From Candidatus Cloacimonadales bacterium (GTDB lineage Bacteria > Cloacimonadota > Cloacimonadia > Cloacimonadales > JAIOQZ01), in the NCBI GenBank assembly GCA_963665815.1, contig OY762463.1, positions 96,001 through 160,000 on the forward strand: 64,000 nt of DNA. Reading direction: 5' to 3'. Made by a program: the position numbers and the translations under genes. This document shows, in pieces, positions 1 through 23,573 of the stretch (position 1 is its first letter; each line of letters begins with the position of its first letter). The notes beneath the pieces were generated by a model that saw only the letters and a program-made list of their open reading frames with translations, did no database searches and was not told where the DNA came from.

Positions 1-285
1 GACAGATGGTGTAGAGAAAATAATCGCAATCCGATCTCTCACAGAATCAGAAGAATCAACAACGATAAAAACAAAGGCTTGAGAATAGAGAGAACTGATA
101 CTGTAATTGAAACTGGCAAAGTTCAATTTCCTGATGGTCAGGATACTCCAACTCTTATCAATCAATTTCTAACTTATCCGGATGGATACGTGGATGGACC
201 CGATGCTCTCGCAGGTTGCCTTGAACGCTTTCCTGAATATGATTGCGGAAGAAACAGAGTCAAAGTAAGGAGTTTTTCCTTTTGA
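1..285 (+). CDS. Phage terminase large subunit, C-terminal nuclease part (5' partial)
   Basis: Frame 1 is open from base 1 (DRWCRENN...); LINQFLTYPDGYVDGPDALAG resembles the terminase C-terminal D-x-x-D-A motif; precedes the minor head gene. Confidence 0.75.
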   Translation, partial: DRWCRENNRNPISHRIRRINNDKNKGLRIERTDTVIETGKVQFPDGQDTPTLINQFLTYPDGYVDGPDALAGCLERFPEYDCGRNRVKVRSFSF

Positions 286-1172
286 ATTATTTTGATCGAT
301 TGATGTTTGAATACTACAGAGTACTCAACAATTCCTGGAAGAAGGAAATCAAAGACTCTGCAAAGCAAGCGATACAGATGCTATCTGATATTCCAAAGTC
401 TGAAAGGCTAAATAAACGTCATATTGATGATATTATGCAAGTAATCAACTCAAACCTTAGCGAAGACTTTTCATCGCTTGTACGGCAGGATACAAAGGCA
501 TTCATACAAAGAAATCTTATGCTTGGTCTCAATGATGTTGAAAAGCAGGTTCCACACAATACTTCAATTGGTTTGTATGGGATAAAAGAAAGAAAGCTTG
601 AAACTCTGATCACAAAGCAGAATCTTTTCTGGATTGGTAACAAATACGGAACTGATATTGAAACCGGATTTAAGCAAACTTTGAAAGAAGCTGTTTCTTC
701 AGGATATACAAGAGAAATGTTAACTGATAAACTAATAGAGCAGTTTCAGCATCTTGGAGAGAAATCACAACATTACTGGCAGGGATTAGCTGAACACACA
801 GCTCTAAGGGTTAGAGAATTTGGAAGATTAGAAGGCTATAACAAAGCTGGAGCGAAAGGCTATAGATTAGTAGTAATTCTGGATGGAAGAACTTCTGAAA
901 TTTGCAGAGCATTAGCAGCTCAGAATAAAGTTTATCCTCTTAATGAGGCAATTGATACGATGCAGGAATTAATGAATATTGATACCCAAAAGCATTCATT
1001 GGAATCCGTAAGAGAAATGACTAAAGAAATGGCACCGTGGGTTTCTGATAAGCAAATAGTAAGAAACTCCAACGGTGCTCCCATTGGAGTTTCTGGAAAT
1101 CATACTCCGTTTCCACCCTTTCACTGGAAGTGTAGGACAACTACGGAGATAAGCTTCAATTTAAATACTTAA
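282..1172 (+). CDS. Phage minor head protein (SPP1 gp7 / Mu gpF-like)
   Basis: DGRTSEIC and PPFHWKCRTT motifs; probable TTG start at 282 after a TAAGGAG RBS (ORF track starts at 243). Confidence 0.85.
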   Translation: MNYFDRLMFEYYRVLNNSWKKEIKDSAKQAIQMLSDIPKSERLNKRHIDDIMQVINSNLSEDFSSLVRQDTKAFIQRNLMLGLNDVEKQVPHNTSIGLYGIKERKLETLITKQNLFWIGNKYGTDIETGFKQTLKEAVSSGYTREMLTDKLIEQFQHLGEKSQHYWQGLAEHTALRVREFGRLEGYNKAGAKGYRLVVILDGRTSEICRALAAQNKVYPLNEAIDTMQELMNIDTQKHSLESVREMTKEMAPWVSDKQIVRNSNGAPIGVSGNHTPFPPFHWKCRTTTEISFNLNT

Positions 1173-1183
1173 TCAATATCATG

Positions 1184-2149
1184 TTATGCTTTGAAATTGA
1201 TACATTTTTGTATTCCTTTCTCTATTGAAGAAAAATGTGTACAAAGTTTATCGTAATACTTCTTAATGCCATGTTCGAGAAAATGGAACGAGATTTCAGG
1301 TACTATTTCCTTAATCAAAGAATTATCTGCTTCAAATTTTTCTACATCATAACTTCTAGCTTCTAAAATATTAATTTTTGATTTTTTCCCCACAATATGT
1401 TCTATTGTTTCAATTAATTTATAAAGAGAACTTGCATTCCCTGGTGCAATATGAAAACACATGGATTTGATTCTTTTAGTATTTACAATTTCTTCTAGTT
1501 TTCTGAATACTAAAAGAAAATCATCAATAAAAGTAAAATCTATTAACTGACCACCACCCTCAATATTAACAATCTGATTATTAAGTATGGATTTCATAAA
1601 TGATGGTACTACTCTACCAGGAATATCATGTATCGAACCATAAATATTTGATAATCTCATAATTAAAAGCTGTGAATTGTAAATTTTTGAATAACTAATC
1701 CATAAATTTTCTGAAATTAATTTTGAGTGACCATAAATATTTATAGGTTCTTTATCGCAATCTTCAGAAACATTTCTTCCTTTTTCCCCATAAACTTCTC
1801 TGCTACTAGCAAAAATAATCCAAGGTGTTTTACTACACGATTTGATAGCATTTATTATGTTCTTAGTTCCTTCAATATTGGTCTGTATACATTTTTCTTT
1901 ATTAAGTTCGGCCTCTACGACTCTTGATACAGCTGCAAGATGAACAACTCCATCAGGATTTAATTTTGGTATAATCGACATACATTGATTGTAGTCACAT
2001 ATATCTAAACTAACAAAATCAGACTTTCTTCTGTTTATTTTTCTTTCTTTAATATCTAAGGAGATATAATTGTTTTCATCACCAAACTTCTGTAAAATTT
2101 CAGTTCCTAAAACACCTTCTCCACCAATTAATAATATTTTCTTTTTCAT
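1184..2149 (-). CDS. NAD-dependent epimerase/dehydratase (extended SDR)
   Basis: GGEGVLG Rossmann motif, HLAA, ASSREVYG, catalytic YGHSK. Confidence 0.9.
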   Translation of the reverse strand: MKKKILLIGGEGVLGTEILQKFGDENNYISLDIKERKINRRKSDFVSLDICDYNQCMSIIPKLNPDGVVHLAAVSRVVEAELNKEKCIQTNIEGTKNIINAIKSCSKTPWIIFASSREVYGEKGRNVSEDCDKEPINIYGHSKLISENLWISYSKIYNSQLLIMRLSNIYGSIHDIPGRVVPSFMKSILNNQIVNIEGGGQLIDFTFIDDFLLVFRKLEEIVNTKRIKSMCFHIAPGNASSLYKLIETIEHIVGKKSKINILEARSYDVEKFEADNSLIKEIVPEISFHFLEHGIKKYYDKLCTHFSSIEKGIQKCINFKA

Positions 2150-5142
2150 TAACCATTAAACTCCGTAATTTTTTCTTGATAAATATGTTCTAATCCATAA
2201 TCAGCTAATACTTGATAAAAATCTCTGTTAATATAATTAATAGCTCGTGAAAAACCTATTGCCAAATCATTTAACAAATCCTTATTATAAGTAGTTTTTT
2301 TTATCTCTGTTTTATAATATTGGACTAATCTTTTAATGCCTTTTTCTGTCGCAAATAAGCCATATACATACGCAATATCTCCTTTTACATGGAGGTGTTC
2401 ATCTGTAAAAAATAATTTTAATAAAAGTTCCGATAATTCTATAAAATTCGTTCTGCTTAGAGCTTTTAACTCTTCTAAAAATAATATAGTGATACACTTA
2501 TGCCATTTAATATTTGATTTTAGTGCCTTTTTTATTGTATTCAAGACTCTTCTTTCATTACTAAGATTTATTATTGGTGTATTTGTACTTTTGTTTAATT
2601 TTTCTAAATATGTGTTTCTTAGTATATCTAAAGATAGATCACTTTTGCAAATCTTTTTCGTACAATTTAGAAGAAAAATAAAATCATCTTCCTGACAATA
2701 TTCTCTATTGATAGATCGTAAAATTCTTGACCATTCGTTCTCTTCAACAAGATCATGTATATGATTCTTCTTCACAAAGAAAACATCAATTTTATCTTTT
2801 AAAGAATCAAGAGTTCTTCTTCTTAGGTAAGAGATTTCTTCGTTTTGTTGCTCCTTTAATAAAGAAACGTATATGCTTTTAAGCATATCTACACTATTAT
2901 TGTCTGTTTGGTATCCCAATGCCAGTACAACTGTAGTTCTTTTCTCTATTGAATAAGTTGAAAATGATGTAAACAAAACTTCTCTTACAATATAAGGAAG
3001 ATTACCTAATGTTGCTGATGTTTTATTACGTGTCCAAATAGAACAATTTTTTAAAAGTTCATTAATCAATTCTTTAAGATTACTTTTTGTATACTTATAT
3101 CCTAGTTGAATTGACTGAGCAGCACAAAATGGATTATTTTTACATAATTTTTGAAATATATCTTCACTTTTCACAAAAATAGTAACGTATTTAGCTATTG
3201 TATACAACCATTCATTATCTCTACTTATAGAAATAATTTCATCAATATCACTTATATAATAATGAAAATAAACGGTAATTAATCGGAAGGCATTTGTATT
3301 ATGTGACACTCGTATTGGTGTATTTCTTCCTCCATCTTGCCTTATAGTTTTGGTTCTAATAAGAATCTTTAAAATTATGGTTAGCAAATCTTTTGTATTA
3401 GCTTCCGGATGCTCTTTTCTTAGAAATTGTTCAATATAAGGTTCATTGAAAGAGAAAGCTCTAAAATCTTTATAAAGCTTAAAAAAAAGTTTTGAAATAA
3501 GGCATAATATGTATAAACTACTTTTGTCATCATTAAAGACTTCACGATCTTTAAAAATAGTGAAAACAGGTTTTAGGAGGCATTGGTTAATTTCATTATT
3601 AAATTTTGATATTTCATCCATAATATTTTTTAAGATAAAGAAATCTATCTCCGAAGTTGATGATGGGAATCTTTTATGTTTATTCTTAAATAATCGAACA
3701 TTATGTATAGAAATTGGGTCTCCAGTTAAATTAAGATCTTTATTTAACTTAAATCTGTTTTCAATTTCAATATCAGAACAGTTATTAATGGAATATGGTT
3801 CTAATAGTAAGACTAATATTGAAGTATCAGTAATAAATCTTTTAATTTTTTCAACATTATCATTTTGACAGAGAGCAATAAATCTAATTTTTAACTCTAC
3901 AAGATCATTCAGTATTTTCTTAAGTAATTCATCGTTGTGAAAATCATCAATGAAGTCTAGGACAATAACTATGGAATGCTTTTTAATAAATTCATCTATT
4001 GTAGCATTACTAATAAAATCAGTAATGAAATAGCGCCATTTTTTTATGTTATTAAAGATAATATTTTGAGATTTATCATATTGCTCAATTTTTTTTACAT
4101 TTAAATAAAACCATATACTTCTTTCTTGTTGACTATTGGCAACAAGCGACAAATACTTTCCTGATATAGTTTTTCCATAGCCATGTTGTGCTGTAATTAT
4201 TATTGATCTTGAATCGTGAATTATGTTCTCTATTTTATAAGGGTGCTGATGAAGAGTTTTAAATGAGGGATACCATACATCATCAACACTTTCTAAAAAA
4301 CTATCTTTCTGAAAACTAACTTTCTCACGATCAATAATTTTGCTTCTAACTGATGCTATATCGATATTTAAAGGGACTGCAAAAAAAGTGTAGTTTTTAC
4401 CTTTTATTGAATATGGATAAATTGATACATTTTCATGGTGAAGTTGAAAATTTGTTTCATTATAAACCTGAACCAAGATTTCAGTAAAGACTTTTTCTAA
4501 TTCTGTTTTTGGATGTCGTGGTTTTACTAAATTAGATTCATTAGTAATAAATTTTGAAAGAGCAATTGAGTACGGTGACTTATCAATATCCTTAAATCCA
4601 CCTTGGGCAAAATTACCATGAGTTGTTGAAGTAACTAACATTAGTGATTCAAAAGCAACTGATTTCCTTTTTAATAATGTCTGTAATGAGTCACGACCTG
4701 CAACTTTTGTTAATAGTTGATTTCTACATACATCGAGAACAATGATTACATTTCCACTATAACTTATTTGTATATTATCAATTACATCAGCTATAGATAT
4801 GCCAGATAATCTGTTACCTTCAGCATAAACAGAATCATCACTTTGAATAAAAATTTCTTCACCTTCAATTCCATATCCATGTCCTACAATATATAGAAAT
4901 ATTAACTCATTACCTGATTGATCGGCATGTCTCGCTGCACTTGATATTAAGTGAATTAAGTCTTCTCTCTTATTAATCAATACTGGATAATCTTCATGGT
5001 AGGTCCACATCGGGAAAAATGAACTTCTTTCTACGCTTTTAAAACTATTGAGAATAATATCAGCACTTGGATAAGCTGAAATCAAGGGCTCGAAGTTATT
5101 TTCATAACTCATTGCAACAAAAAGAGCATATCCTTTTTTCAT
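2149..5142 (-). CDS. Caspase-like (C14) protease fused to a NACHT/STAND-like NTPase and HEAT-like repeats
   Basis: FLYIVGHG (His88) and VLDVCRN (Cys139) dyad; Walker A-like AQHGYGKT (318-325), Walker B-like IVIVLDFIDD; C-terminal RNKTSATLG, RTTVVLALG, KGDIAYVYG helical repeats. Confidence 0.75.
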   Translation of the reverse strand: MKKGYALFVAMSYENNFEPLISAYPSADIILNSFKSVERSSFFPMWTYHEDYPVLINKREDLIHLISSAARHADQSGNELIFLYIVGHGYGIEGEEIFIQSDDSVYAEGNRLSGISIADVIDNIQISYSGNVIIVLDVCRNQLLTKVAGRDSLQTLLKRKSVAFESLMLVTSTTHGNFAQGGFKDIDKSPYSIALSKFITNESNLVKPRHPKTELEKVFTEILVQVYNETNFQLHHENVSIYPYSIKGKNYTFFAVPLNIDIASVRSKIIDREKVSFQKDSFLESVDDVWYPSFKTLHQHPYKIENIIHDSRSIIITAQHGYGKTISGKYLSLVANSQQERSIWFYLNVKKIEQYDKSQNIIFNNIKKWRYFITDFISNATIDEFIKKHSIVIVLDFIDDFHNDELLKKILNDLVELKIRFIALCQNDNVEKIKRFITDTSILVLLLEPYSINNCSDIEIENRFKLNKDLNLTGDPISIHNVRLFKNKHKRFPSSTSEIDFFILKNIMDEISKFNNEINQCLLKPVFTIFKDREVFNDDKSSLYILCLISKLFFKLYKDFRAFSFNEPYIEQFLRKEHPEANTKDLLTIILKILIRTKTIRQDGGRNTPIRVSHNTNAFRLITVYFHYYISDIDEIISISRDNEWLYTIAKYVTIFVKSEDIFQKLCKNNPFCAAQSIQLGYKYTKSNLKELINELLKNCSIWTRNKTSATLGNLPYIVREVLFTSFSTYSIEKRTTVVLALGYQTDNNSVDMLKSIYVSLLKEQQNEEISYLRRRTLDSLKDKIDVFFVKKNHIHDLVEENEWSRILRSINREYCQEDDFIFLLNCTKKICKSDLSLDILRNTYLEKLNKSTNTPIINLSNERRVLNTIKKALKSNIKWHKCITILFLEELKALSRTNFIELSELLLKLFFTDEHLHVKGDIAYVYGLFATEKGIKRLVQYYKTEIKKTTYNKDLLNDLAIGFSRAINYINRDFYQVLADYGLEHIYQEKITEFNG

Positions 5143-5150
5143 ATTAAAAC

Positions 5151-5465
5151 TCAGGAGTTTGTAAATTCAAGTTCAATAGCACCATCAACCTGTCCTGAAA
5201 CTATTACAATCTCACCTTTCATTGAAAACCCTAGTTTTATCGTTACTTTAGATAATTTTCTAGTAGAATTTTTTGTAACATTACTACTTTCAATATTTGC
5301 AATTAATGGAGCAATTAAATCATTTAACTGGTTCTGTATTTCTTCAATCTTGATTTTAACGAATTCATTTTTTTTTCTTCCATACGTTCTTGAAGTCGAG
5401 AAAGTTTCTTGTTTTTCTGTGATATCTGTCTGTATAGCTTTTACAATTATACTCTGATCAGTCAT
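5151..5465 (-). CDS. Pepco/Trypco-like peptidase-co-occurring small protein
   Basis: Helix followed by LSKVTIKLGFSMKGEIVIVSGQVDGAIELEF strands; immediately upstream of a caspase gene. Confidence 0.7.
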   Translation of the reverse strand: MTDQSIIVKAIQTDITEKQETFSTSRTYGRKKNEFVKIKIEEIQNQLNDLIAPLIANIESSNVTKNSTRKLSKVTIKLGFSMKGEIVIVSGQVDGAIELEFTNS

Positions 5466-5499
5466 AATCTTTCCTCCTACTTAGATTGATTTTATTTTG

Positions 5500-6090
5500 C
5501 TACTTAATATATTTTGCTTCTTTTAACAAACAAATTATTGCTTCCATTTGAATGTGACGATATTTATTACAACTATTTGATTCTGTTTTTAATTTACCCG
5601 TAATCGAGTCAAAAGTTATGAAATGAATTTTATTTTTTCTTGCAAATGCTTCAAGAATATGATTTTTTCCCAATAAATCAAACAAGCCAGTTTGATTAGG
5701 ATTAACAAAATCATTATAATAATTATTTTTATTCCTAGTATTTATCCTTTCTATGTTTTTCTCAATATCACTTGATATGCATTTAAAGATTAGGACTTCA
5801 ACTCTTTTTAAGGTTTTCACCAAATCAATGAATCTAGTTTTTGATGATCTAAAATCAAAACATCCATCGAGAACAATGTCTATAGGTAAATTCTTTATTA
5901 GATTTAAGTGTTGAAACAGTAAGTCATACCTATTATATCTTTTAGATTCAATAATATTGCCAGCCATATCATGAGCTTTGCCATACTGGCTAGGAGATAA
6001 ATATAACAAATTAAATCTCGTACTAATCAATTGCGAAATGGATGTTTTGTAGGAACCAGGCATACCATACAACAGAATTATACTATTCAT
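5500..6090 (-). CDS. P-loop small-molecule/nucleotide kinase-like protein (AAA_33-like)
   Basis: IILLYGMPGSYKTS Walker A variant, IVLDGCF, ERINTR lid; likely start MNSII at 6090 overlapping the upstream stop. Confidence 0.7.
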   Translation of the reverse strand: MNSIILLYGMPGSYKTSISQLISTRFNLLYLSPSQYGKAHDMAGNIIESKRYNRYDLLFQHLNLIKNLPIDIVLDGCFDFRSSKTRFIDLVKTLKRVEVLIFKCISSDIEKNIERINTRNKNNYYNDFVNPNQTGLFDLLGKNHILEAFARKNKIHFITFDSITGKLKTESNSCNKYRHIQMEAIICLLKEAKYIK

Positions 6091-6829
6091 TTTTAATAAA
6101 CCTTTGTAACGACCATTTCTGTTCATAAGTTAATATGTTATCTGTTAGCGAAAAAATAACTTTATTTCTGGAATCATTCATTGAGCTAATCAACCAGCTT
6201 GTAAATTCGCGTATTTGAGAAAACTCGTCAGATTTATTAAAATACTCGAAAATATTTATCTTCCTTATATGATAACTTACTTTATTATAATCAAGAACCC
6301 ATTTGCTAGAATTAAATAAAGACTCTATTTCTCTCTCTGTGTATACGCTTTTTCTTAAAGGTTGAATGTGTTTTTTCAGCTTTATCAGTATGTTTTTAGA
6401 GAACTCATCCTCTGGAGAAACAAAATGATGAGATAAAATAACACAATCATTACTTATTGCTAATCTATCTATTTCTTTGAGTAACTCTTCCATCTCAGAG
6501 GGTGTAAAATATTGTAGTAATTGTCTAATTAAAAAAAAAGATGTGGAGTTATCAATAATAGGAATATCCCTGACGTCTGAGCAAATCGATTTCAAATTAT
6601 TATTACTATACCTTTTACACATTTCTGATGAACAGTCAATCCCAATAATATTCTTAGTCTTCAATTTTTTGCTTATGATACCAGTTCCACAACCTAACTC
6701 TAAAATCAAGCCTTTTAAGTCAGGTAACCCATGGATAAAAATATCTAATAACTCTTTATCTTGTCTCCATGATGTTTCAACATCATATTGTTCTGCAAGT
6801 TGGTTAAAATGATTAATAATTTTTTGCAT
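6083..6829 (-). CDS. Class I SAM-dependent methyltransferase
   Basis: ILELGCGTG motif I, IGIDCS motif II. Confidence 0.9.
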   Translation of the reverse strand: MQKIINHFNQLAEQYDVETSWRQDKELLDIFIHGLPDLKGLILELGCGTGIISKKLKTKNIIGIDCSSEMCKRYSNNNLKSICSDVRDIPIIDNSTSFFLIRQLLQYFTPSEMEELLKEIDRLAISNDCVILSHHFVSPEDEFSKNILIKLKKHIQPLRKSVYTEREIESLFNSSKWVLDYNKVSYHIRKINIFEYFNKSDEFSQIREFTSWLISSMNDSRNKVIFSLTDNILTYEQKWSLQRFIKNE

Positions 6830-8084
6830 TTTCTAATATATCCACTGTTGATGATACTGTGCCATCAGTATCTATTTTGAATAAAGGATTATTTGCATTC
6901 TGTTTTACAAAAACAGATGGTGCATTTGATGTTGAGATTCCAGTAAGATTCGCTGATTGCTCGTGAATGACATTAAACGTGAAATAACTCTTTTTATTAA
7001 TTCCCTGAACCATTTCAAAGACTCTTGCTCCTTTAAATAGAATAAGTGTACAACCAAGCAATAAAGCTATCAATTCATCACTGAATTCAAGAGGACTAAT
7101 ACCGCTTCCTTTGGGTCCATTCTTAAAAACATTAAATCTTCCATTAAGCTGTTCTTTTAATTTATTGAAACTATGCATTTCTAGTATATCAATTGCATCA
7201 AAATAAGAAAAATCATTTGCATATTGTCCGTTTCTTGGCACCAGGGTTATCTCAAGTGTTGAGTTAAACTCTAAAAGGTTTAAAATGATTTTCATGTCAA
7301 AAATTGATTCTATATAATCATCTGTAAAAAATACAAGTTTTGTATTAGGTTGTGACACATCATGTAAAAAATCATTAATGTGATCGATAACAAAGTTGTC
7401 GTTCAGTTTTTTTAACATCAAGTCTTCTATTGTAGAGTTAGAAATCTTCTTTCCATTATCAAAAAATTTAATAATGTTATCAGTAGTTAGCTTTGATGGT
7501 ATACAAGATTTATAAGAATTTTTAACATCATATCCAACCGTCCCAGAGATTACAGAGAATCTGATTTGATCTTTTAAGGGTAATGAGTCCATAGTATTTA
7601 ACATATGAAAACATACATTTTTTCCTAACTCATTAAAATCTTTATTAATGTGGATGGGAAAAAATTGATCAGAAAAAAGAACTATCTTAACTATTCTATT
7701 AATAATATCAGTTGTTTGCTGTATAGATGCAATATCTATAACAGAACTATTATATTCAGTAATTTTGTAAGTCAAAATTTCAACAATAAGGTTTCCTAAC
7801 TCATCAGAATCATAATAGTCATAAGCAATTGTCTCTGTATCCAATAGTGAGTTGTAAAAGTCTTTAACCAATGTTACTATCCAAATTTTAAAGTTCTCTT
7901 TATCATCCTTTTCATGCAAATTATTGAATTTATTGCTAACTGTAATTGTACCTGGGAGAAAAAATTCACTAATTAAACTTGTTGATGATGTGTTTTTCTT
8001 ATTATAAATTAGGTAATCATATACTTCTATGGCATATTCTTCGATATTGTTTGATTTACTTTTTATTCTTGCTTTTTGTTTCAT
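6813..8084 (-). CDS. DUF89/ARMT1-like metal-dependent phosphatase with N-terminal extension
   Basis: FFTDDYIESIFD, PRNGQYANDFS and LFKGARVFEM match the DUF89 D-x-x-x-E..D, P..ND and KG..E motifs. Confidence 0.7.
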   Translation of the reverse strand: MKQKARIKSKSNNIEEYAIEVYDYLIYNKKNTSSTSLISEFFLPGTITVSNKFNNLHEKDDKENFKIWIVTLVKDFYNSLLDTETIAYDYYDSDELGNLIVEILTYKITEYNSSVIDIASIQQTTDIINRIVKIVLFSDQFFPIHINKDFNELGKNVCFHMLNTMDSLPLKDQIRFSVISGTVGYDVKNSYKSCIPSKLTTDNIIKFFDNGKKISNSTIEDLMLKKLNDNFVIDHINDFLHDVSQPNTKLVFFTDDYIESIFDMKIILNLLEFNSTLEITLVPRNGQYANDFSYFDAIDILEMHSFNKLKEQLNGRFNVFKNGPKGSGISPLEFSDELIALLLGCTLILFKGARVFEMVQGINKKSYFTFNVIHEQSANLTGISTSNAPSVFVKQNANNPLFKIDTDGTVSSTVDILENAKNY

Positions 8085-8143
8085 AATTTTTAAGCTCCTT
8101 TCCTACAAAATTTCGTTACATATTTATTAGTTACTTATTTTGT

Positions 8144-8824
8144 TCATCTATCACTATAATCACCTGACATTATTATAGGTAAATGTCCCAAATCTCTTAA
8201 ATATTGTACAACTCGATGACCTTCATATTCGACTTCATAAACAGTAACTCCAGAGAATTTTGATATATGTTTGGCATGAATTTGGTCAAGTCTATGGTTA
8301 TTTGATACAAATATAGATATTTCTTTCTTATTGTGCATTGATTCATGAAACAGTGGTTTTAAATCCCAGATTTTCTTCTTGAAAAGACTACATTTATAAG
8401 TATTAATTTTTTGGGTTATCCAGCGTAAATCTTTGTTTTTTATCATTAAGTGTGGAGATAAAAACGTCTGAGGTGAAAATGCAATCACCTTACCCATTTT
8501 CAATAAAAGCGAAAACAAAATTGCTGCATATCCTCCCATAGAATTACCAACAAAGATAACTTCATTTGGGGTTATTGCTTCAATTTGCTTAAATAAAAAT
8601 GCTTTCATTGATTCAATGTCATTTGCAACATCAATAATGCCATTTTGATACCAACATTGTGAAAAATCTCGAATAAATATTTTGTTTTCATCAAGGATTC
8701 TTGAGGCACTATAGAATTCAAATGGTGGCATAGCAATACCAGCATTTAATCCTCCAAAAAAAACAAACAGTTTTTTGCTTTCTTTATGTAACTCAATTTC
8801 AACTGATTTTCTACTATTTTTCAT
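8144..8824 (-). CDS. Alpha/beta hydrolase
   Basis: GNSMGG nucleophile elbow, AFSPQT, candidate Asp (RLD) and His (EGH). Confidence 0.85.
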   Translation of the reverse strand: MKNSRKSVEIELHKESKKLFVFFGGLNAGIAMPPFEFYSASRILDENKIFIRDFSQCWYQNGIIDVANDIESMKAFLFKQIEAITPNEVIFVGNSMGGYAAILFSLLLKMGKVIAFSPQTFLSPHLMIKNKDLRWITQKINTYKCSLFKKKIWDLKPLFHESMHNKKEISIFVSNNHRLDQIHAKHISKFSGVTVYEVEYEGHRVVQYLRDLGHLPIIMSGDYSDR

Positions 8825-8982
8825 TTCTACTTAGTAGTCTCCTTACCTCTCTTAAAATAAAAATTTACGAGTAACTATACTTGTCAATTTATATATTTAT
8901 TGAAATCAATTTCCCATTTTCTCTCTTAACTCTCCACAACTCGGTTTGATCTATTTACCCCGCATAGTTTTATTACCTCATT

Positions 8983-9381
8983 ATGAGAAAAAATAAAAAT
9001 GACGTGTCCGGCTTTATGACGGATTGGAAAGAGATTAACTTCTTTGAAGAGCATGAGTTTGAATGCTCTTGTTGTGGAATAGTAATTATTTCAAAGAAAC
9101 TTGTTTTGATGCTAGATTTAGCTCGTGAGTTATCAGAAACAGCCTTTGTTATTACAAGCGGATACAGATGCAAAAAACACAACAAGGAAGTTGGTGGAGT
9201 TAGGAGTTCATCTCACTTGAAGGGATTTGCCGTAGATATTGCTGTTCCTGATAATATTACTCGTCTTAAAATCCTCAGAGGATTAATCATTGCCGGATTC
9301 CGAAGAATAGGCATTGGAAAAGACTTTATCCATGTAGATATTGATCCTACAAAACCAAATAACATCTGGTTGTACAAATGA
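8983..9381 (+). CDS. Peptidase M15A family endolysin
   Basis: EFECSCCG, TSGYRC..HN..VGG..SSHLKG.AVDI, GIG..FIHVD. Confidence 0.9.
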   Translation: MRKNKNDVSGFMTDWKEINFFEEHEFECSCCGIVIISKKLVLMLDLARELSETAFVITSGYRCKKHNKEVGGVRSSSHLKGFAVDIAVPDNITRLKILRGLIIAGFRRIGIGKDFIHVDIDPTKPNNIWLYK

Positions 9382-9836
9382 TACCTGTAACCACTGAAAC
9401 AACTCTCAAAATCCTCAATCTCAATTCAGATGAAAGAATCCTTTCTCTCTTTGAAGAACATTCTGATATTGTTATGCTTTGGCTAAAAAGGGTAACTGAT
9501 GAATCGATCTGGACAGAAATCAAAGAAGGAACTGCTGAAGCTGATATTCTCAATGTTTATAAGTTTGCCTATTGCTACTATTTACTGTCTTCAACTATAG
9601 AATTTCTCAACTTAAAGACCATCGGAGAAGGCATTATCAAAACAACCGGAATCGATCAGCAATCAACAGAGCTGCTCTCCGGTATTGAGATCAAATCATT
9701 CAAAAATCAATTAGAAATCAAAGCTCTGGAACTCATTTCAGAACATATCAATGCTGATGGATTTGATCGTCTTCGTGAACTGAAACTTGGTACATCCAAG
9801 CTTAAACAAACCAGAACCAGAGCTACTGTAATATGA
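9378..9836 (+). CDS. Phage hypothetical protein, possible head-tail connector
   Basis: ATGA-coupled within the phage late operon; helical, 152 aa. Confidence 0.5.
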   Translation: MIPVTTETTLKILNLNSDERILSLFEEHSDIVMLWLKRVTDESIWTEIKEGTAEADILNVYKFAYCYYLLSSTIEFLNLKTIGEGIIKTTGIDQQSTELLSGIEIKSFKNQLEIKALELISEHINADGFDRLRELKLGTSKLKQTRTRATVI

Positions 9837-10296
9837 GTATCGATACTGAAATCCTCAGAGCAATTTACAAAGCACTGGAAAGCAGACTACATCTTATCGG
9901 TAGCGTTATTGAAGGTGAAGCCAGACGACTTATTCTGGAACGTGATATTAAAGATAAAGGTGACTTCTTTCAAAACACCGGATATGCTATTCAATTCAAC
10001 GATGCATCAATTGATCTCGCTGTAGGTTCTAATGTTGCTCATGAGCAATACGTTCTGGGAGGAAAAGTTCCTTCCTGGACTCCACTCGAACCTTTGAGGC
10101 TTGGGTTGAACGTAAAGGCTTGGATTGGGTAGATAAAAAGACAGGAAAACAACTAACAATTGAGCAAATCGCATATCTGATTCGTGGGAAAATCAAAAGA
10201 GAAGGAATTCCGGAAAGAAACATCTTCGCAGAGATTATCAAGAACAAAGAGCAATGGATTTACCAACAACTTGATTCAATCGAGGTTATAATATGA
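9833..10296 (+). pseudogene. Frameshifted phage neck/tail-completion (HK97 gp10-like) gene
   Basis: Reads ...VGSNVAHEQY...PSWTPLEPL, then continues in another frame from 10099 as AWVERKGLDW...AYLIRGKIKREGIPERNIF... to a TGA at 10294-10296 overlapping the next ATG. Confidence 0.75.
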
Positions 10297-10670
10297 CTTT
10301 TATTGAAAAACGAAATCTTATTACTCAAGCTCTTGTTGCTATTGGAATAGATGGGAAAAACATCAACTACTCAAAAGATATTATCCCAAGATCATTCCCT
10401 GCTGTTCTTGTTGTGCTACAAGGCGAACAAGGTAAGAATCCAACCTCAAGACAATTCTGCTCGTTTGAGTATAATATCGAAGTTTTCCTCATTGCTGATG
10501 TTAATAATTCAAATGATCCGGATACCGTAATTTTAACGCTTTCAGATAAGTTTAAATCCGAATACAGAGAACTAATGAAACAGGATATTCCTCGAATTGA
10601 ATTCTATCCTGCAAGAGCTGATGCCGGAAGAAAAGTCCGCATAGCAAAGGTTTATACGGTATCAGAATGA
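10293..10670 (+). CDS. Phage protein, possible tail terminator
   Basis: 125 aa with FPAVLV and YNIEVFL strand pattern; follows the neck gene. Confidence 0.5.
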   Translation: MTFIEKRNLITQALVAIGIDGKNINYSKDIIPRSFPAVLVVLQGEQGKNPTSRQFCSFEYNIEVFLIADVNNSNDPDTVILTLSDKFKSEYRELMKQDIPRIEFYPARADAGRKVRIAKVYTVSE

Positions 10671-11851
10671 GAGTAAAGAAACTCGGTGGATTCAATATCG
10701 GAATCGTCAGCACTGAAGAGCTACTTTCAAAGAGTTACTCTTCTGAAGCTGTAAATCTGGATTCATACAACTGGGAAGGAAAGCGAAAACTTTCTAAATC
10801 AGCAGAAAAGAAAAAGATGATTCCTGCACCATTCTCAATGGCAAACCTTCTTAAACTTATAGAAAAGGATGAATATCATTCCGGCTGTATTTCCGCTAAG
10901 ATAAATACAACATTGATGCAGGTTGAAGTAAAGAATAGCCAACTCAAAAAGTGGTTTCTGGATGCAGAATATCCGGGCAATGATGATATTATTCTCACTC
11001 TTGGAGAATTGCTCAAATACTTTCTTTCCTGTGGAAATGGTTTCATTATTAAGATGCGAAACTCGGCAGGATTATGGGTTGGTATGGAAAGGCTTCTACC
11101 TACTGAAGTGCAACTACTTGAAAACTATGACGAGTTTGGTTTCTTCAAACCTGACTTTCTGCATGTCAAAAACGGTAAAAAGAAGTTCTTCTCCGGTGAT
11201 GATGTTATCCATTTCAAAAATCCTACTCATAGATCAAATGCTTGGGGTGTTGCCTGTTTACCGGTTGCCATCAATATCGAGATATTAGAGCAGATTAAAA
11301 CCTTTGATTTCAACAACTTCAAAAACGGACTTCTGGTTGATTACTTCATGATAGTAGAAGGTGGAAGCCTTAAAGATGATGTTGTAGAAGATACTGAAGG
11401 AAATGAAGTTCTAAAGGATGCTTTTACAGTAATCGAAGAAACTCTCCAATCCGCTAAAGGCAATAACAAATCACACACTACTGTCTTGATTGAGACTGAG
11501 AATAAAGATGCTAAAATCAGGCTTGAACCACTCAGACAACAAGAAAGAGATGGTGGCTTTATATCTTTAAAGAAAGACCTTAGAGAAGGCATTTTTGCTT
11601 ATCATAGAGTTCCAGCAAGGATAGTGTCTCAGCTCATTCCGGGTCAACTCGGCGGAGACAATAAATCTGACATGCTCATGTTTTATCATTTCGTTATAAA
11701 ACCGCTCCAACACCGTCTAGGGCAGGTGTTAGCAAAGGAGTTTAATAAAGAATACAAGTGGAATTTAACCGCACAGGACTTCGATTTTGGCGATTTGACT
11801 GCCATCTTCGAATCCGCAGACGAGAAGCTCTTTCGAGCAGTTAAAAATTAA
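10667..11851 (+). CDS. Phage portal protein (PBSX/P2-like)
   Basis: CGNGFI, DVIHFKNP...WG, NFKNG, AYHRVP, FVIKPLQ. Confidence 0.88.
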   Translation: MRVKKLGGFNIGIVSTEELLSKSYSSEAVNLDSYNWEGKRKLSKSAEKKKMIPAPFSMANLLKLIEKDEYHSGCISAKINTTLMQVEVKNSQLKKWFLDAEYPGNDDIILTLGELLKYFLSCGNGFIIKMRNSAGLWVGMERLLPTEVQLLENYDEFGFFKPDFLHVKNGKKKFFSGDDVIHFKNPTHRSNAWGVACLPVAINIEILEQIKTFDFNNFKNGLLVDYFMIVEGGSLKDDVVEDTEGNEVLKDAFTVIEETLQSAKGNNKSHTTVLIETENKDAKIRLEPLRQQERDGGFISLKKDLREGIFAYHRVPARIVSQLIPGQLGGDNKSDMLMFYHFVIKPLQHRLGQVLAKEFNKEYKWNLTAQDFDFGDLTAIFESADEKLFRAVKN

Positions 11852-11971
11852 AAATGAAAAATGAAAAATTAAAAGGAAGAAAAAAGATGATACATCGAGG
11901 ATTGAGAGACAGTTACTTAACTTTTGCAAACAACCATCTCTTAATTCTTAATTATTAATTCTTAACTCATT
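11841..11971. repeat. Inverted heptamer tandem arrays between portal and capsid genes
   Basis: TTAAAAA/TGAAAAA x5 (11841-11875) and TCTTAAT-like x4 (11939-11966), approximately reverse complements. Confidence 0.7.
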
Positions 11972-11982
11972 TGGAGGTTGGA

Positions 11983-13719
11983 TTGAAAGCTAAGAAAATC
12001 GTAAAAAAGGGAGAACTTAGAAACGTAGAGGTTGAGCTGGTATCTTTGCTTTTTGATGATATGACTCCTGCAAATCAGAAAGGATTTGTGATCAAATCAG
12101 CAAACGGAAAGAGCTATCGAATTAAAGGAAGCTCCAAGAAGTTTAAAAGTGAAACAAAAGGTTCACAAGGTCGATTATACGTCACTTTGATGGAACCGGA
12201 AGTTGAAGACGCACAGGGTGATTTTTATACTGTAGATGAAATCCAGAAAGCATGTGATTATTTCTCAAAACATGGAATGGTTGGAAAGAATGATATCAAC
12301 CACAATAATCATCCGGTAAATGATTTCACAGTAGCTGAGAACTATATTCTCAAAACTGCTGATGAAGTGCATTTTCCTGATGTCAAAGTCGGCTCATGGG
12401 TTCAAGTTCTCAAGTGTGTTGATCTTACATCTCCACTCTGGAAGAAAGTTGAGAAAGGTGATTTTAACGGTGTTTCCATCTATGGTAGAGCAGATGATTT
12501 GGGAGAAACTTCTGCAGCTCTCAAAGCTATCAAAGATGAGCTTTCAGGATTGAAAGAACTTCAAAAATCAATGCAGGATAAAGAACGTCAGACAGAGCTT
12601 GAAAAAGCGATTACAGAGTTGGAATCCAAGCTTTCTGAACTTGAGAAAAGTCTTGGTGATTCTTCACTTCGGGAGGCAGTCAAAAGCATTGAGAAGTCGC
12701 TTAACAGCTTATCTGTCACAATGAATAAAGCTATTTCTAAATCAATCAAAGGAGAACCATCAGAGTTTGAAGGTGATCGTGAAGTTGTTATCAACGGTGA
12801 GAAAATTTTTGTCAAAGCTGCACATCGTGAAATCTACAAAGGCATTGCTGATGTTGATTCAGGTAAAAAGATGAATATTCTTACCCCAAACACAACATCT
12901 CTTTTCATTGATGAAGTTGTTGGATCAAAACCGGGTGATACTTTAACAGACATCTCAGTAATTCCACTCTTGAAAGATGAAAGCATCGATGTTGGTTTAA
13001 TCGAAGATTTGATCTTTAAGAATCAGCTTGATGGAGCATTATCCGCTCAGGATGTTACTTCAGCCGATATGCAATGCCCAACTGGTATCCTCAATGCTGA
13101 ATTTACTCTCGGAAGAGATATTGTGGAATTTTACAAAGACAAATACGGAGAAGATGCCTTCGGTGCTTATGTTGAACAGCATATTGCTAAGAAAGCAGAA
13201 AAAGCGATCCGTCTTTTACTTTTCAAAGGTGATAGAAGTTCTGCAGCAGCTAAACTAAAGGCTTTAAATGGTGTCATCAAACTAGCAACTGACAATTCAG
13301 ATATCACCACTATAAATCCAACAACTTATGCTGAATGGTCAGAACGCTTTGAACAGACTCTTCTTCTCTTCTCAGATGAGATGCTGGAAGAACAGGAAAA
13401 CTTCAAAATGTATGTATCTCATAAGGACCTGATACGTATCAGAACTGAGCTTGGAAAACGTGAGACCAATAAAGGTGATAAACTACTTCTTGAAGGTGGA
13501 AAAGTGTCATTTGCCGGTATCCCTGTTAAAGCTCGATTAATGCCTGACAATTACATCATCGTTGGTTTGACCAAGTTTATTATAATCGGTTATAGAACCG
13601 ATGCAGAGCTTAAAGTTGAGCATCATGGTTCAGACTGGAAATACCACTGGTATATCAGAATCAGACCGGGCATCACCTACGTTCCAAACTTTGTAAAAAT
13701 CTACCAATTAACCGAATAG
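11983..13719 (+). CDS. XkdF-like prohead protease + coiled-coil scaffold + major capsid fusion
   Basis: EPEVEDAQGDFY..EIQKA, DINH, ENYI, GSWV, W.KV..GDFNGVSIYG; heptad-rich middle; capsid-like C-terminus (LLFKGD...LNGVIKLA); probable TTG start at 11983 after GGAGG. Confidence 0.8.
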   Translation: MKAKKIVKKGELRNVEVELVSLLFDDMTPANQKGFVIKSANGKSYRIKGSSKKFKSETKGSQGRLYVTLMEPEVEDAQGDFYTVDEIQKACDYFSKHGMVGKNDINHNNHPVNDFTVAENYILKTADEVHFPDVKVGSWVQVLKCVDLTSPLWKKVEKGDFNGVSIYGRADDLGETSAALKAIKDELSGLKELQKSMQDKERQTELEKAITELESKLSELEKSLGDSSLREAVKSIEKSLNSLSVTMNKAISKSIKGEPSEFEGDREVVINGEKIFVKAAHREIYKGIADVDSGKKMNILTPNTTSLFIDEVVGSKPGDTLTDISVIPLLKDESIDVGLIEDLIFKNQLDGALSAQDVTSADMQCPTGILNAEFTLGRDIVEFYKDKYGEDAFGAYVEQHIAKKAEKAIRLLLFKGDRSSAAAKLKALNGVIKLATDNSDITTINPTTYAEWSERFEQTLLLFSDEMLEEQENFKMYVSHKDLIRIRTELGKRETNKGDKLLLEGGKVSFAGIPVKARLMPDNYIIVGLTKFIIIGYRTDAELKVEHHGSDWKYHWYIRIRPGITYVPNFVKIYQLTE

Positions 13720-13727
13720 GAGGATAT

Positions 13728-13928
13728 ATGTGGAAATGGATACTGAAACAAGCGTTGAAATCACTCGCTGAACCGATTGTTGATGCAATCATCCTTGCTC
13801 TTGAAAACTTAGCAGCAAGAACAGGCAATACTATTGATGATCAGTTTGTTGCTAAGTTCAAAGAGTTCAAAGAAGCAATAATCGGCTTCATCCTCGCTAA
13901 CTGCGATAAAATCGTCAAATCAAGCTGA
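13728..13928 (+). CDS. Small amphipathic phage protein
   Basis: GGAGG RBS; 66 aa, LAARTGNTIDD. Confidence 0.6.
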   Translation: MWKWILKQALKSLAEPIVDAIILALENLAARTGNTIDDQFVAKFKEFKEAIIGFILANCDKIVKSS

Positions 13929-13938
13929 GGAGTAACCA

Positions 13939-14481
13939 ATGTCACTTACAAAACCAACATTGCCATCCGGTATGAGTTCAGGAGATTTAGCCGATCTCCT
14001 GAACCAGATCGGGAAGGTCGATGTTTATAATATTTATGCTGCAATCGGAAGTATGTCTTCTGCTGAAATTACAGCAATGTTTGCCAATTTGGGTGCAATA
14101 AATGCAGAGTTGACAGCTTCATTTGAAGAAGTGGGAGAGCTTGCAGAGAAACCGTTCAAAGCCGAATCCAAAACAGAAAAATTAAAAACTCGCCACTATC
14201 AATTGGAAGGCAAACGAACAAACGTGGTTACAACTACCATCGTTGGAATTTCTGAAGCGAAAAAGAACTGGTTGGAAGATCAAAGTGCAGGAATGACACA
14301 ACTTACTTTTGTAGCTCTTTCTAAAGATAAAACGCAGGCAATTCTGATTAATGGATGCCGATGGACTGTAGATTGGAGCGGTGAAGCTGATGGCTTATAC
14401 ACTCAGGAAATCACAACTGAATTCACAGGCAAAACTTCTGAGAAGATCGTCTTCTTCAATCAGATAAGTGCGTCTGAATAG
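13939..14481 (+). CDS. Putative major tail tube protein
   Basis: GAGGAG RBS; 180 aa with a beta-rich C-terminal half; follows the capsid gene. Confidence 0.55.
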   Translation: MSLTKPTLPSGMSSGDLADLLNQIGKVDVYNIYAAIGSMSSAEITAMFANLGAINAELTASFEEVGELAEKPFKAESKTEKLKTRHYQLEGKRTNVVTTTIVGISEAKKNWLEDQSAGMTQLTFVALSKDKTQAILINGCRWTVDWSGEADGLYTQEITTEFTGKTSEKIVFFNQISASE

Positions 14482-14654: not shown

Positions 14655-16121
14655 TTAATGATCAGTAAATACCATGCTGTTCAATAAATCAGAAATTTTT
14701 ATAACAGCTATACCTGAAGTAATATCAGACATAGCATAAGGAATTATAAGTTTATCATTGTGAACCAATCCTCCACAAGAATATATTACGTTTGGAACAT
14801 ATCCTTCACGTTCCTCATCGTTTGGAGTTAACAAAGGTTCCTCTAGTCTAGCTATAATTTTTGAAGGATTGTCAATATCAAGAAGTATTACTCCCAAAGA
14901 ATATTGCCTCATAGGACCAACACCATGCGTAAGCACAAGCCAGCCTTCACTTAACTCAATTGGAGATCCACAGTTTCCTATTTGAACAAACTCCCAAGAC
15001 TCTGTCGGTTCTTGAATTATCTTTGATTCGTACCAGAAATGTAGATTGTCTGAATACATTATACGATTATTTTCACCATCTTGCCTGGAAAGCATTACAT
15101 ATTTTCCATCTATTTTACGAGGAAAAAGTGCCATTCCTTTGTTTTGAACAGCTTCTCCATTTAATGTACTAATATTGAAGGATACAAAATCGGTAGTTTC
15201 TATTAGTTGAGGTAGAATTCCATGACCACTGTAGGCAGTATATGTTGCATAATATGTCACTTCGTTATTATCATCAAAGAATTCAACAAAGCGTGCATCT
15301 TCTATTCCTCTACTCTCATTATCGGAAACAGGAAATATAACTCTTTCTGAAATTTTTGATTTATCATTAAAATTAATCCTGTAGTTTGAATTTGCTAACC
15401 ACTTAATATTATTTATAGTTAGGTTATGATAGTTGAAATCTGGTGTTAAATGTAATTTATTTATACTTTCTTTTAATTGCGAATATGTAAAAATCATAGG
15501 CATAGTTTTCAATATATTACGACTTGTTTCATTCCAAAATTTCATATCTTCAAGTTTAAGACAGAATAAGGATTTATCATATAAAGGATCATGAGAAATA
15601 TCAGGAGTTTCCACATAATCAGAAATTTGATCGAAAAGGAAAGAACCATTACATTCTATAATACCACTTCGAAAGACAATAGATGAAATATGCCCTTCTC
15701 CAGTAGCTCTTAAGCTCATAATAAATCTTAACTGTCCATGCTTAACACCATTTTGATTTGGATGTGGAACTATTGACGGATTAAAAAGAGCAGCAGATTC
15801 AATTGAATATTCCATTGTAAAATATGCACCTATGAGCATTTTCTTTTCTTTACTAATAGTTATATTGGTAGGTATATACTCAGAAACTTTGAAGAAACTA
15901 TGACTAAGTTGTTGCTCAATATTTTTATGTCTATCGTAAAAATTCGCTCGAACTTTCATTAACAGATTACGAGTATCTTTTTCTGATAACCTTATTACTC
16001 GATCAATTATCCTACTTACTCGTAAGTCATTATTTGGTATATGAATTCTAGTAATTACTCTACTAGTATCACGGACAATCCTGATTTGATTCCTTTTAAT
16101 TTTCGATTGAATATTTTCCAT
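14655..16121 (-). CDS. GH130 family glycosidase/phosphorylase, long form
   Basis: AALFNPSIV, GIEDARFV, YATYTAY, NKGMALFPRKI, GYVPNVIYSCG. Confidence 0.9.
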   Translation of the reverse strand: MENIQSKIKRNQIRIVRDTSRVITRIHIPNNDLRVSRIIDRVIRLSEKDTRNLLMKVRANFYDRHKNIEQQLSHSFFKVSEYIPTNITISKEKKMLIGAYFTMEYSIESAALFNPSIVPHPNQNGVKHGQLRFIMSLRATGEGHISSIVFRSGIIECNGSFLFDQISDYVETPDISHDPLYDKSLFCLKLEDMKFWNETSRNILKTMPMIFTYSQLKESINKLHLTPDFNYHNLTINNIKWLANSNYRINFNDKSKISERVIFPVSDNESRGIEDARFVEFFDDNNEVTYYATYTAYSGHGILPQLIETTDFVSFNISTLNGEAVQNKGMALFPRKIDGKYVMLSRQDGENNRIMYSDNLHFWYESKIIQEPTESWEFVQIGNCGSPIELSEGWLVLTHGVGPMRQYSLGVILLDIDNPSKIIARLEEPLLTPNDEEREGYVPNVIYSCGGLVHNDKLIIPYAMSDITSGIAVIKISDLLNSMVFTDH

Positions 16122-16151
16122 TTCCCATTTCCTATTGTTTTAAGCAATAAC

Positions 16152-21139: not shown

Positions 21140-21278
21140 AGAACTAATTAAAATAAGAAAACATGAACTACAACAGGATTATGATAAACTGAATAAAACT
21201 CTCAAAGAAACTGAAGAGCTGAAGCTCAAGACTGAAGGTGCTTTGTTAATATTAACCAAAATTGAAAAGGAGATATAA
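21129..21278 (+). CDS. Small coiled-coil phage protein (49 aa)
   Basis: AAGGAG RBS; MTAKELIKIRKHELQQDYDKLNKTLKETEELKLKTEGALLILTKIEKEI. Confidence 0.6.
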   Translation: MTAKELIKIRKHELQQDYDKLNKTLKETEELKLKTEGALLILTKIEKEI

Positions 21279-21279
21279 G

Positions 21280-23478: not shown

Positions 23479-23503
23479 TTTATACTTTATATCTACATTA
23501 CAT

Positions 23504-23573
23504 AAAAAAATCGGCTTCACACAAGCTTCGCCGAATCAGTCTTCCTTTTTCACTTCGTTCAAAACGAAGACTG
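23504..23573 (-). terminator. Two hairpins plus U-tract downstream of tmRNA
   Basis: CAGTCTTC/GAAGACTG (23537-23573) and TCGGC/GCCGA (23511-23534), then A7 on + (U7 on -). Confidence 0.65.

Follow-up and report, generated by a model that had tools for sequence, protein, structure and literature searches.

We analysed a window of 64,000 nucleotides (nt) of Candidatus Cloacimonadales bacterium DNA (contig OY762463.1, positions 96,001 to 160,000, assembly GCA_963665815.1; all positions below are counted from the first letter of this window) and found in it a block of seven minus-strand genes that is foreign cargo of a Mu-like prophage. Two of these genes, encoding a small Pepco-family protein and a caspase-NACHT-HEAT protein, are very likely the core of the block, a two-gene abortive-infection module of a kind already described. 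For the five flanking enzyme genes we see about even odds that they are part of the same system as the pair. The reading that we favour as a whole, a core module with an accessory enzyme arm in one cargo operon, stands in our judgement at an even chance. The features of the block are, in the order of transcription:

8144..8824, minus strand: gene 1, alpha/beta-hydrolase-fold esterase-like protein, 226 amino acids (aa); from weak profile matches under the cut-offs and a motif
6813..8084, minus strand: gene 2, DUF89/ARMT1-type metal-dependent phosphatase of a divergent subfamily, 423 aa; from Pfam
6083..6829, minus strand: gene 3, class I S-adenosylmethionine (SAM)-dependent methyltransferase, 248 aa; from Pfam Methyltransf_25/11
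5500..6126, minus strand: gene 4, P-loop protein resembling small-molecule kinases, 208 aa, with an alternative start at 6090; from the PADLOC model VakA and an Atlas lead
5151..5465, minus strand: gene 5, Pepco-family small protein, 104 aa, presumed protease-activated pore former; from a Pfam Pepco match under the cut-off
2149..5142, minus strand: gene 6, caspase, NACHT-type STAND NTPase and HEAT-like repeats, 997 aa; from Pfam and an AlphaFold (AF2) model
1184..2149, minus strand: gene 7, extended short-chain dehydrogenase/reductase (SDR), resembling nucleoside diphosphate (NDP)-sugar epimerases/reductases, 321 aa; from Pfam Epimerase
8825..8982, no strand assigned: divergent intergenic stretch that separates gene 1 from the endolysin gene, likely the promoter region of the operon; from reading the sequence
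1062..1094, minus strand: terminator-like hairpin 90 nt past the SDR stop codon, in the 3' end of the convergent MuF-like gene, with a stem of 14 pairs, 6 of them GC

All seven open reading frames (ORFs) that a preliminary description of this DNA had placed on the minus strand were present, and their AT-richness was borne out by a GC content of 27–30% in every gene (17–27% at third codon positions) against 36–41% in the flanking phage backbone genes. The overlaps and couplings that it had pointed out at 6813/6829, 6083/6090 and at a TAATG at 2149 were found as well. Genes 2 and 3 overlap by 17 nt (6813–6829) and genes 3 and 4 by 44 nt (6083–6126), an overlap that shrinks to 8 nt if gene 4 starts at its second Met (6090), and the ATG of the SDR gene overlaps the stop codon of the sensor gene by 1 nt. 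The other gaps are 59 nt between genes 1 and 2, the largest in the block, 34 nt between the kinase-like and the Pepco gene and 8 nt between the Pepco and the caspase gene. The terminator scan detected no minus-strand terminator-like site inside the seven-gene block, the nearest being the hairpin at 1094–1062; region-wide three such sites were found where 2.2 were expected, which lends this hairpin weak support. A promoter scan was uninformative in this AT-rich DNA (52 sites found, 55.5 expected). Strong Shine-Dalgarno-like motifs (AGGAGG, AAGGAG and TAAGGAG) were noticed ahead of the Pepco, DUF89 and hydrolase genes (5466–5499, 8085–8143 and 8825–8850, minus strand). The domain calls of the preliminary description were essentially right: DUF89, the methyltransferase, the caspase domain and the SDR scored above the curated Pfam cut-offs, Pepco and the hydrolase scored below them and the kinase-like protein had no Pfam match.

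The product of gene 6 consists of a caspase domain (residues 1–258), a NACHT-type NTPase (about 300–640) and helical HEAT-like repeats (about 640–997). Peptidase_C14 matched with 27.8 bits against a cut-off of 21.4 bits, and nSTAND3 and AAA_22 stayed below their cut-offs. The positions proposed earlier for H88, C139 and the Walker A motif proved correct, with GHG at 87–89, DVCR at 137–140 and GYGKT (K324) at 321–325; H88, C139, the Walker A motif and D396 of Walker B are invariant in an alignment of eight sequences. A full HMMER scan of 1.84 billion representatives returned just eight full- or part-length relatives (P0002 to P0009, 25–30% identity) and a 62-aa fragment, the rest being matches to the caspase domain only. 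Across this family the NACHT profile matched seven of eight members (best E 1.5e-8), HEAT_2 three of eight and Peptidase_C14 likewise three of eight.

The AF2 model of the 997-aa protein had a mean predicted local distance difference test (pLDDT) score of 75.6, and its last ~350 residues formed an all-helical repeat. Residues 1–258 of the model aligned with MALT1 paracaspase at Z 20.3 with a root-mean-square deviation of 3.4 Å over 221 residues, and with caspase-3/7 at Z about 18.5. For the whole model, Foldseek returned NLRC4, NOD2, NLRP3, SAMD9, Avs4 and Avs3 (E 2.5e-8 to about 1e-6, identity 9–13%). From the model and the family matches, the view of the gene 6 product as a caspase-NLR-like protein with HEAT repeats is right. 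The order of effector, STAND NTPase and repeat sensor is that of bacterial NLR-like and Avs proteins, in line with the Foldseek matches to NLRC4, NOD2, NLRP3, Avs4 and Avs3. Unlike Avs proteins, the caspase-STAND protein had no PADLOC match at E 0.01 or better, shares only 9–13% identity with the matched structures and belongs to a tiny family; the PADLOC-DB used dates from 2023, and newer Avs families (10.64898/2026.01.04.697583, as far as its available text goes) lie outside this comparison.

The caspase-STAND protein was found in 1 of 41 genomes of relatives and in 1 of 232 genomes of the phylum, and the DUF89 protein in 1 of 232 genomes of the phylum, in each case the window's own genome alone. 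We concluded from this distribution that the seven-gene block is foreign cargo. Profile searches of whole genomes added no member to the sensor family: they found a full-length caspase-STAND protein in 1 of 55 genomes of the order of genome G041, with two more that were caspase-only, and a family member in 1 of 400 scored genomes of the class of G041 (one genome was unscored). When the plasmids were searched by tblastn, the caspase-STAND protein gave two caspase-domain-only matches, in Shinella, and the DUF89 protein gave none. No match was returned by a metagenome scan with alignment A2, by viral contig scans with the DUF89 protein, alignment A1 and P0022, or by a megablast search of the block against phage records.

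Pepco and Trypco domains were reportedly introduced by Kaur et al. in 2020, among other papers. The Pepco-like gene lies directly upstream of the protease gene, and the same order with the same 8-nt gap is seen in an independent comparison locus, a contig of a Candidatus Parabeggiatoa metagenome-assembled genome (L003) that was detected in a scan with the closer subgroup alignment A3. Three relatives of the Pepco-like protein are known: P0019 (51% identity), P0020 and the small ORF upstream of the Parabeggiatoa sensor homologue (46% identity). The Pepco model matched four of the four proteins and Trypco1 three of the four, and a scan with the Pepco alignment returned the Parabeggiatoa sequence alone, twice (L004 and L005). 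The AF2 monomer model of the Pepco-like protein (pLDDT 59) was too poor for a fold search. In a complex prediction of the caspase domain with Pepco the score was 0.40, with 0.01 for the best control; the runs agreed in at least 84% of the contacts and the partner pLDDT was at least 64. Among 80 solved complexes 58 attained the mark used, as did 2 of 110 mismatched pairs; at a score of 0.60 or under it was attained by just seven of those 80 complexes and by both passing mismatches, so the prediction gives weak support for binding.

Modules of this kind have been described by Evans et al. (bioRxiv 2025, PMC12642450). In the available part of that preprint, Pepco proteins are paired with serine or cysteine proteases fused to STAND sensors, and the characterised example is SsPepco-SsAvs4 of Streptomyces subrutilus. 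In this Streptomyces pair Pepco is a beta-barrel assembled beforehand, which turns into a toxic pore once the protease cleaves its C-terminus, and serine-protease-linked Pepco proteins have a removable C-terminal tail after a conserved Ile (PMC12642450). The window pair agrees with the described modules in the small Pepco-like gene immediately upstream of a protease-STAND fusion, in the intact catalytic residues and in the defence-like context. In contrast to SsPepco-SsAvs4, with its trypsin-like serine protease, the window pair has a cysteine protease of the caspase-like type and a sensor with HEAT-like repeats at its end. Its Pepco match is under the cut-off, the Pepco-like protein lacks a tail past the model, and genes for five small-molecule enzymes surround the pair in the operon. 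Judged by sequence, we file the pair as a putative member of this kind of Pepco-protease pore module, with a Pepco below the cut-off whose C-terminus is the best conserved part of the family and in which the cleavage site cannot be placed.

The preliminary description knew of no named system with the composition of the block. This did not hold for the Pepco and protease-STAND pair, which is of a kind already described in the preprint, and it held for the seven genes together, for which there was no PADLOC system match and no description found in print; supplements and figures of the preprint may show related neighbourhoods. The novelty would thus lie in the seven-gene composition alone, which appears to be undescribed in the literature searched. 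Among the papers listed by the literature searches, none on Pepco appeared besides the preprint.

The enzyme genes were annotated from profiles and motifs. The hydrolase (gene 1) matched UPF0227 (E 7.9e-4) and Hydrolase_4 (E 2e-3), both under the Pfam cut-offs, NCBIfam XcbB/CpsF (E 2.6e-5, 23.7 bits against a cut-off of 125 bits) and a PHROG esterase/lipase (E 3e-4); it has a nucleophile elbow, GNSMG, at residue 93, and no sequence relative in the PDB below E 0.65. The DUF89 protein (gene 2) matched PF01937 with 47.7 bits (cut-off 25 bits) and has the motifs DD255-256, ND290-291 and K351; the only homologue found for it among 5.8 billion clusters was P0022 (51% identity, 97% coverage). Methyltransf_25 and Methyltransf_11 were above the cut-off for gene 3, which has ELGCGTG at residue 44 and whose best NCBIfam likenesses, CmoA, BioC and UbiE, were all far below their cut-offs. 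For the P-loop protein (gene 4) there was no Pfam or NCBIfam match; it matched the PADLOC model VakA (E 6.9e-6), and its nearest Atlas clusters, AAA_33/Zeta_toxin/SKI (0.95), serve as a lead only. Sequence searches of the PDB with the kinase-like and the DUF89 protein gave nothing significant. The SDR (gene 7) matched Epimerase (E 7e-35) and a PHROG nucleotide-sugar epimerase (E 5e-51), reached no NCBIfam equivalog cut-off and has the NAD motif GxxGxxG (GGEGVLG, 9–15) as well as the catalytic Ser, Tyr and Lys (SS 115–116; YxxxK as YGHSK, 139–143). The literature searches gave no paper tying DUF89 to phage defence and, among the papers listed, nothing with the word VakA.

VakA, a PADLOC model name without a description, we take to mean viperin-associated kinase. 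Prokaryotic viperin (pVip) systems make a modified nucleotide as a chemical defence and have associated kinases. The enzymes of the block might share this logic of making a modified nucleotide, and the VakA match of gene 4 is a point of likeness; unlike in pVip systems, there is no radical SAM gene in the block according to the Pfam and PADLOC scans. We considered the seven genes as a prokaryotic viperin system and rejected this, as there is no radical SAM protein and just the weak VakA match.

The pair is embedded between the enzyme genes, four of which lie upstream of it and one, the SDR gene, downstream. This position, the compactness of the operon, its uniform GC content, the absence of a minus-strand terminator-like site within it and the overlap of the SDR start with the sensor stop favour a linkage of the enzymes to the pair. 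Each seen on a single JGI contig, the DUF89 homologue P0022 and the Pepco homologue P0019 agree in the contig size of exactly 11,344 nt and in the type of source. It thus appears that the two members known of this DUF89 subfamily both accompany this Pepco subfamily.

In the Parabeggiatoa locus, Pepco and a 996-aa caspase-STAND homologue are followed by a carbamoyltransferase gene, which has a 4-nt overlap with the sensor stop, and then by genes for a radical SAM/SPASM and a NUDIX protein. These five genes form one island of 26–31% GC in flanks of 37–42% GC. On its two sides lie a gene with a PIN domain and a gene for a Septu PtuA-like ATPase, the latter split into two ORFs (L003 2637–3367, 13290–14524), and the locus is defence-island-like on account of these neighbours. 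The radical SAM protein matched the PADLOC pVip models (E 3.6e-16) in its N-terminal core only, residues 9–105, and has a SPASM domain; as a viperin we rejected it, the match being confined to that core. The preliminary description had proposed to look for co-occurrence of the enzymes with the Pepco-caspase pair. The pair did recur with enzymes in Parabeggiatoa, and the enzymes were not the same set. As a theme common to the enzymes of both loci we infer the modification of a nucleotide or nucleotide-sugar.

The borders of the cargo slot that holds the block are two backbone genes of the Mu-like prophage:

243..1172, plus strand: left border, MuF-like head morphogenesis gene; Pfam Phage_Mu_F, PHROG head morphogenesis
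8983..9381, plus strand: right border, M15 peptidase endolysin gene; Peptidase_M15_3 (E 2.9e-16), PHROG endolysin (E 1e-28)

The block lies antisense between them, as had been described beforehand. The element was read from positions 243–14481 of the window together with locus L002 (G000:C1:76001-96000). The upstream part of the element encodes an S24/CI-type repressor, a Mu-type transposase, a MuB-like ATPase, DUF3164, a GemA-like protein and the small and large terminase subunits; within the window follow the MuF-like gene, the block, the M15 endolysin, a portal gene, a protease-capsid fusion and a tail-fibre-like ORF (21262–21852), and besides this ORF no tail module was recognised in the window. 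Homologues of the MuF-like protein were found in 19 of 41 genomes of relatives, with up to eight matches per genome, which points to a multi-copy Mu-like element. Twenty-one related element copies (L022 to L042) were surveyed; copies within one genome and in kin genomes are not independent of each other. Their backbone is collinear, with MuF, the variable slot, the endolysin or o9378, o9833, o10293, the portal, the protease-capsid gene and o13939, and the endolysin of the window is collinear in related copies. Measured from MuF to the next conserved backbone gene, the slot has a size between 0.7 kb, in L042, and 12.3 kb, in L038, for those 16 copies where the far border was reached; in the other five it is larger than the stretch examined, and in the window it is 7.8 kb.

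The slot cargo, mostly antisense to the backbone, was scanned with Pfam in 14 + 92 ORFs of at least 90 aa, chosen greedily (for L022 to L024 just 14 large ORFs), and the defence labels are our reading of the Pfam family names. Recognised defence-type genes were found in the slot of 14 of the 21 copies: BrxL/PAPS-reductase (BREX-like), GmrSD, type I and type III restriction-modification (RM), Dcm/Vsr/HNH, OLD with UvrD (Gabija-like), ABC-3C, Abi_C, a Schlafen-type helicase and a CAP12-type TIR. In three copies (L032, L033 and L041) the cargo was ambiguous, and four had no defence-type gene: L024 and L029 carry secreted type IX secretion system (T9SS)/beta-helix proteins, L039 an insertion sequence and L042 hardly any cargo. 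The scanned cargo of the 21 copies yielded no gene for a caspase, Pepco or DUF89 protein. It is clear that this slot behind the MuF-like gene is a hotspot of defence genes. It resembles the defence hotspots (moron slots) of temperate phages in its fixed position in a conserved backbone and in its variable, mostly antisense and defence-rich cargo. It differs from typical moron slots in that the host element is Mu-like and multi-copy and belongs to a small phylum that has type IX secretion signals, and in that the slot also carries secreted beta-helix/T9SS proteins.

Some further observations concern the element itself. The Mu-type transposase ORF (L002 13701–15727) has 380 aa and matches positions 303–599 of a PHROG profile of 696 positions, with a separate 210-aa ORF upstream; the transposase may be split or truncated and this copy of the element defective. 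Outside the repressor end (L002 9102–12567, G000:C1:85102-88567) lie a gene for an OLD-family AAA_15 and TOPRIM nuclease (576 aa) and one for an HNH_5 endonuclease (410 aa), which look like a further defence-type pair. Another antisense cargo block of low GC content (14655–20334, minus strand, 31–35% GC) occupies a variable slot of its own, bounded by o13939 and by the tail-fibre-like ORF at 21262. Its genes encode a GH130 phosphorylase, a GT4-type glycosyltransferase, a further GH130 and a glycosyltransferase of 749 aa. This block, which none of the 21 related copies examined was found to carry, may be a surface-glycan modification moron. Near the right-hand end of the phage-like region is a transfer-messenger RNA gene (23572–23920, minus strand, tag ANENYALAA), which is overlapped by a probably spurious 97-aa ORF (23412–23705).

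According to the explanation that we favour, the block would be a single cargo operon, gained by horizontal transfer and transcribed as one unit, in the prophage's defence hotspot. The C-terminal HEAT-like repeats of the 997-aa protein would sense an infection cue, and the NACHT ATPase, the motifs of which are present, would switch the sensor on. This would activate the N-terminal caspase-like protease with its His88/Cys139 dyad and caspase fold. By analogy with SsPepco-SsAvs4, the protease would then cut the adjacent Pepco, a beta-barrel assembled beforehand, which would turn into a membrane pore, and the pore would kill the cell before phage release. The five flanking enzymes, with a roughly equal chance of being an accessory arm of this system or not, would make, edit or remove a phosphorylated or methylated nucleotide or nucleotide-sugar. 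The molecule could be an antiviral metabolite released together with the pore, or it could set the threshold of the sensor as a ligand or buffer.

A number of observations weigh against this explanation. On the side of the core, the Pfam Pepco match (E 3.8e-5) reached 24.6 bits (23.8 bits in the genome search) against a cut-off of 27 bits, and the protein ends at residue 104, where the match has reached profile position 111 of 112, which leaves no C-terminal tail beyond the model. PADLOC, to which the preliminary description had pointed as a check, matched no known-system model to the caspase-STAND, Pepco, DUF89, SDR or hydrolase protein. On the side of the enzymes, gene 4 has a deviant Walker A motif (GMPGSYKT), and the DUF89 protein, like P0022, has Asp-Asp at the nucleophile motif in place of the Asp-Asn of canonical enzymes, which in fission-yeast Duf8901 is the nucleophile/metal pair Asp248-Asn249 (PMC9062747, available part); from these motifs, either protein could be catalytically altered. 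The sharing of one contig by P0022 and P0019 is read from the equal size of 11,344 nt alone, and the family searches returned no caspase-STAND homologue from such a contig; its gene may be cut at the contig end, fall in the query's own 50% cluster or be absent. The number of independent loci is very small; L004 and L005 repeat the sequence of L003, with 99.99% identity between L003 and L004, and the three count as one. A single seven-gene system, as first proposed, is favoured by the operon structure and by the two related loci, and not by the differing enzyme sets and the one independent locus that could be read.

The foremost rival is that unrelated cargo units are stacked in the hotspot, an autonomous Pepco-sensor pair and a separate enzyme unit (a metabolic moron, or other defence or counter-defence) that share a promoter only. 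We regard this as a real possibility, somewhat short of an even chance. Characterised Pepco-protease pairs act as two-gene systems and need no enzymes, as far as the available part of the preprint goes (PMC12642450); related slots hold several unrelated systems side by side in the same antisense orientation, for example a Gabija-like system and type I RM in L035; and the enzyme sets of the window and of Parabeggiatoa are not homologous, BLASTP giving nothing below E 0.07 besides the Pepco and caspase pairs. However, the pair sits between the enzyme genes and not beside them, coupled to the SDR gene by the stop overlap and separated from the kinase-like gene by 34 nt, the DUF89 and Pepco homologues, both with about 51% identity, come from contigs of identical size, and the Parabeggiatoa enzymes are again translationally coupled to the pair and share the composition of the island.

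The enzymes could also be a prophage pathway for surface-glycan or nucleotide-sugar modification (serotype conversion or superinfection exclusion) into which the defence pair was inserted. The SDR has its nearest likenesses among NDP-sugar epimerases and dehydratases, the hydrolase shows a weak resemblance to the capsule proteins XcbB/CpsF, and the low-GC block 5.8 kb downstream (14655–20334) encodes two GT4-type glycosyltransferases and two GH130 phosphorylases. We nevertheless consider this improbable: the downstream block occupies another slot and differs in GC content, the tight coupling of SDR and sensor genes is hard to explain by insertion, and the carbamoyltransferase, radical SAM and NUDIX proteins of Parabeggiatoa are not a glycan pathway either. 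There is no glycosyltransferase, flippase, polymerase or acyltransferase in the seven-gene block, and an ordinary polysaccharide or O-antigen cluster, which had been named as a possible refutation, was rejected for the lack of any glycosyltransferase, export or polymerisation gene among the seven proteins. Highly improbable in our estimate is that the enzymes, above all the hydrolase that heads the operon, are latent effectors (zymogens) activated by caspase cleavage. Alpha/beta-hydrolases are a described class of caspase-activated death effectors, with LcHydrolase-LcCaspase as the example in the available part of the preprint (PMC12642450), and the block likewise combines a caspase-like protease and an alpha/beta-hydrolase in one operon. 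LcHydrolase is cleaved at two R|G sites into three fragments of about 32.6 kDa in total (PMC12642450), whereas the window hydrolase is smaller (226 aa), is encoded four genes away from the caspase and contains no Arg-Gly dipeptide, so that we rejected it as a zymogen of the LcHydrolase type. The Parabeggiatoa locus has no hydrolase.

Our favoured explanation, with the enzymes as an accessory arm, has a more far-reaching version, which we put forward tentatively and rather doubt. The rare caspase-NACHT-HEAT clade would then be a metabolite-coupled immune receptor, each member of which carries an interchangeable cassette of nucleotide- or sugar-modifying enzymes: kinase, DUF89, methyltransferase, esterase and SDR in the window, and carbamoyltransferase, radical SAM and NUDIX in Parabeggiatoa. 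The product would be a ligand or buffer of the sensor, or a chemical-defence molecule deployed with the Pepco pore. If true, this would give an NLR-like system of bacteria a small-molecule pathway of its own.

Descriptions of Pepco-protease modules have until now presented them as self-contained cassettes of sensor, protease and pore. If the enzyme cassettes are functional partners, NLR-like sensing and pore-forming death would be tied to small-molecule chemistry, either as signal or ligand metabolism or as an antiviral metabolite. To our knowledge, such a small-molecule link in bacteria has so far been known for TIR, CBASS and viperin-type systems, and not for STAND-protease modules. A true linkage of the enzymes would also imply a role in immunity for DUF89 phosphatases and for a zeta-like kinase. 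Whatever the role of the enzymes, the well-defined hotspot offers a practical site for the search for new systems, in a Mu-like element that is multi-copy and in a phylum that has been little studied.

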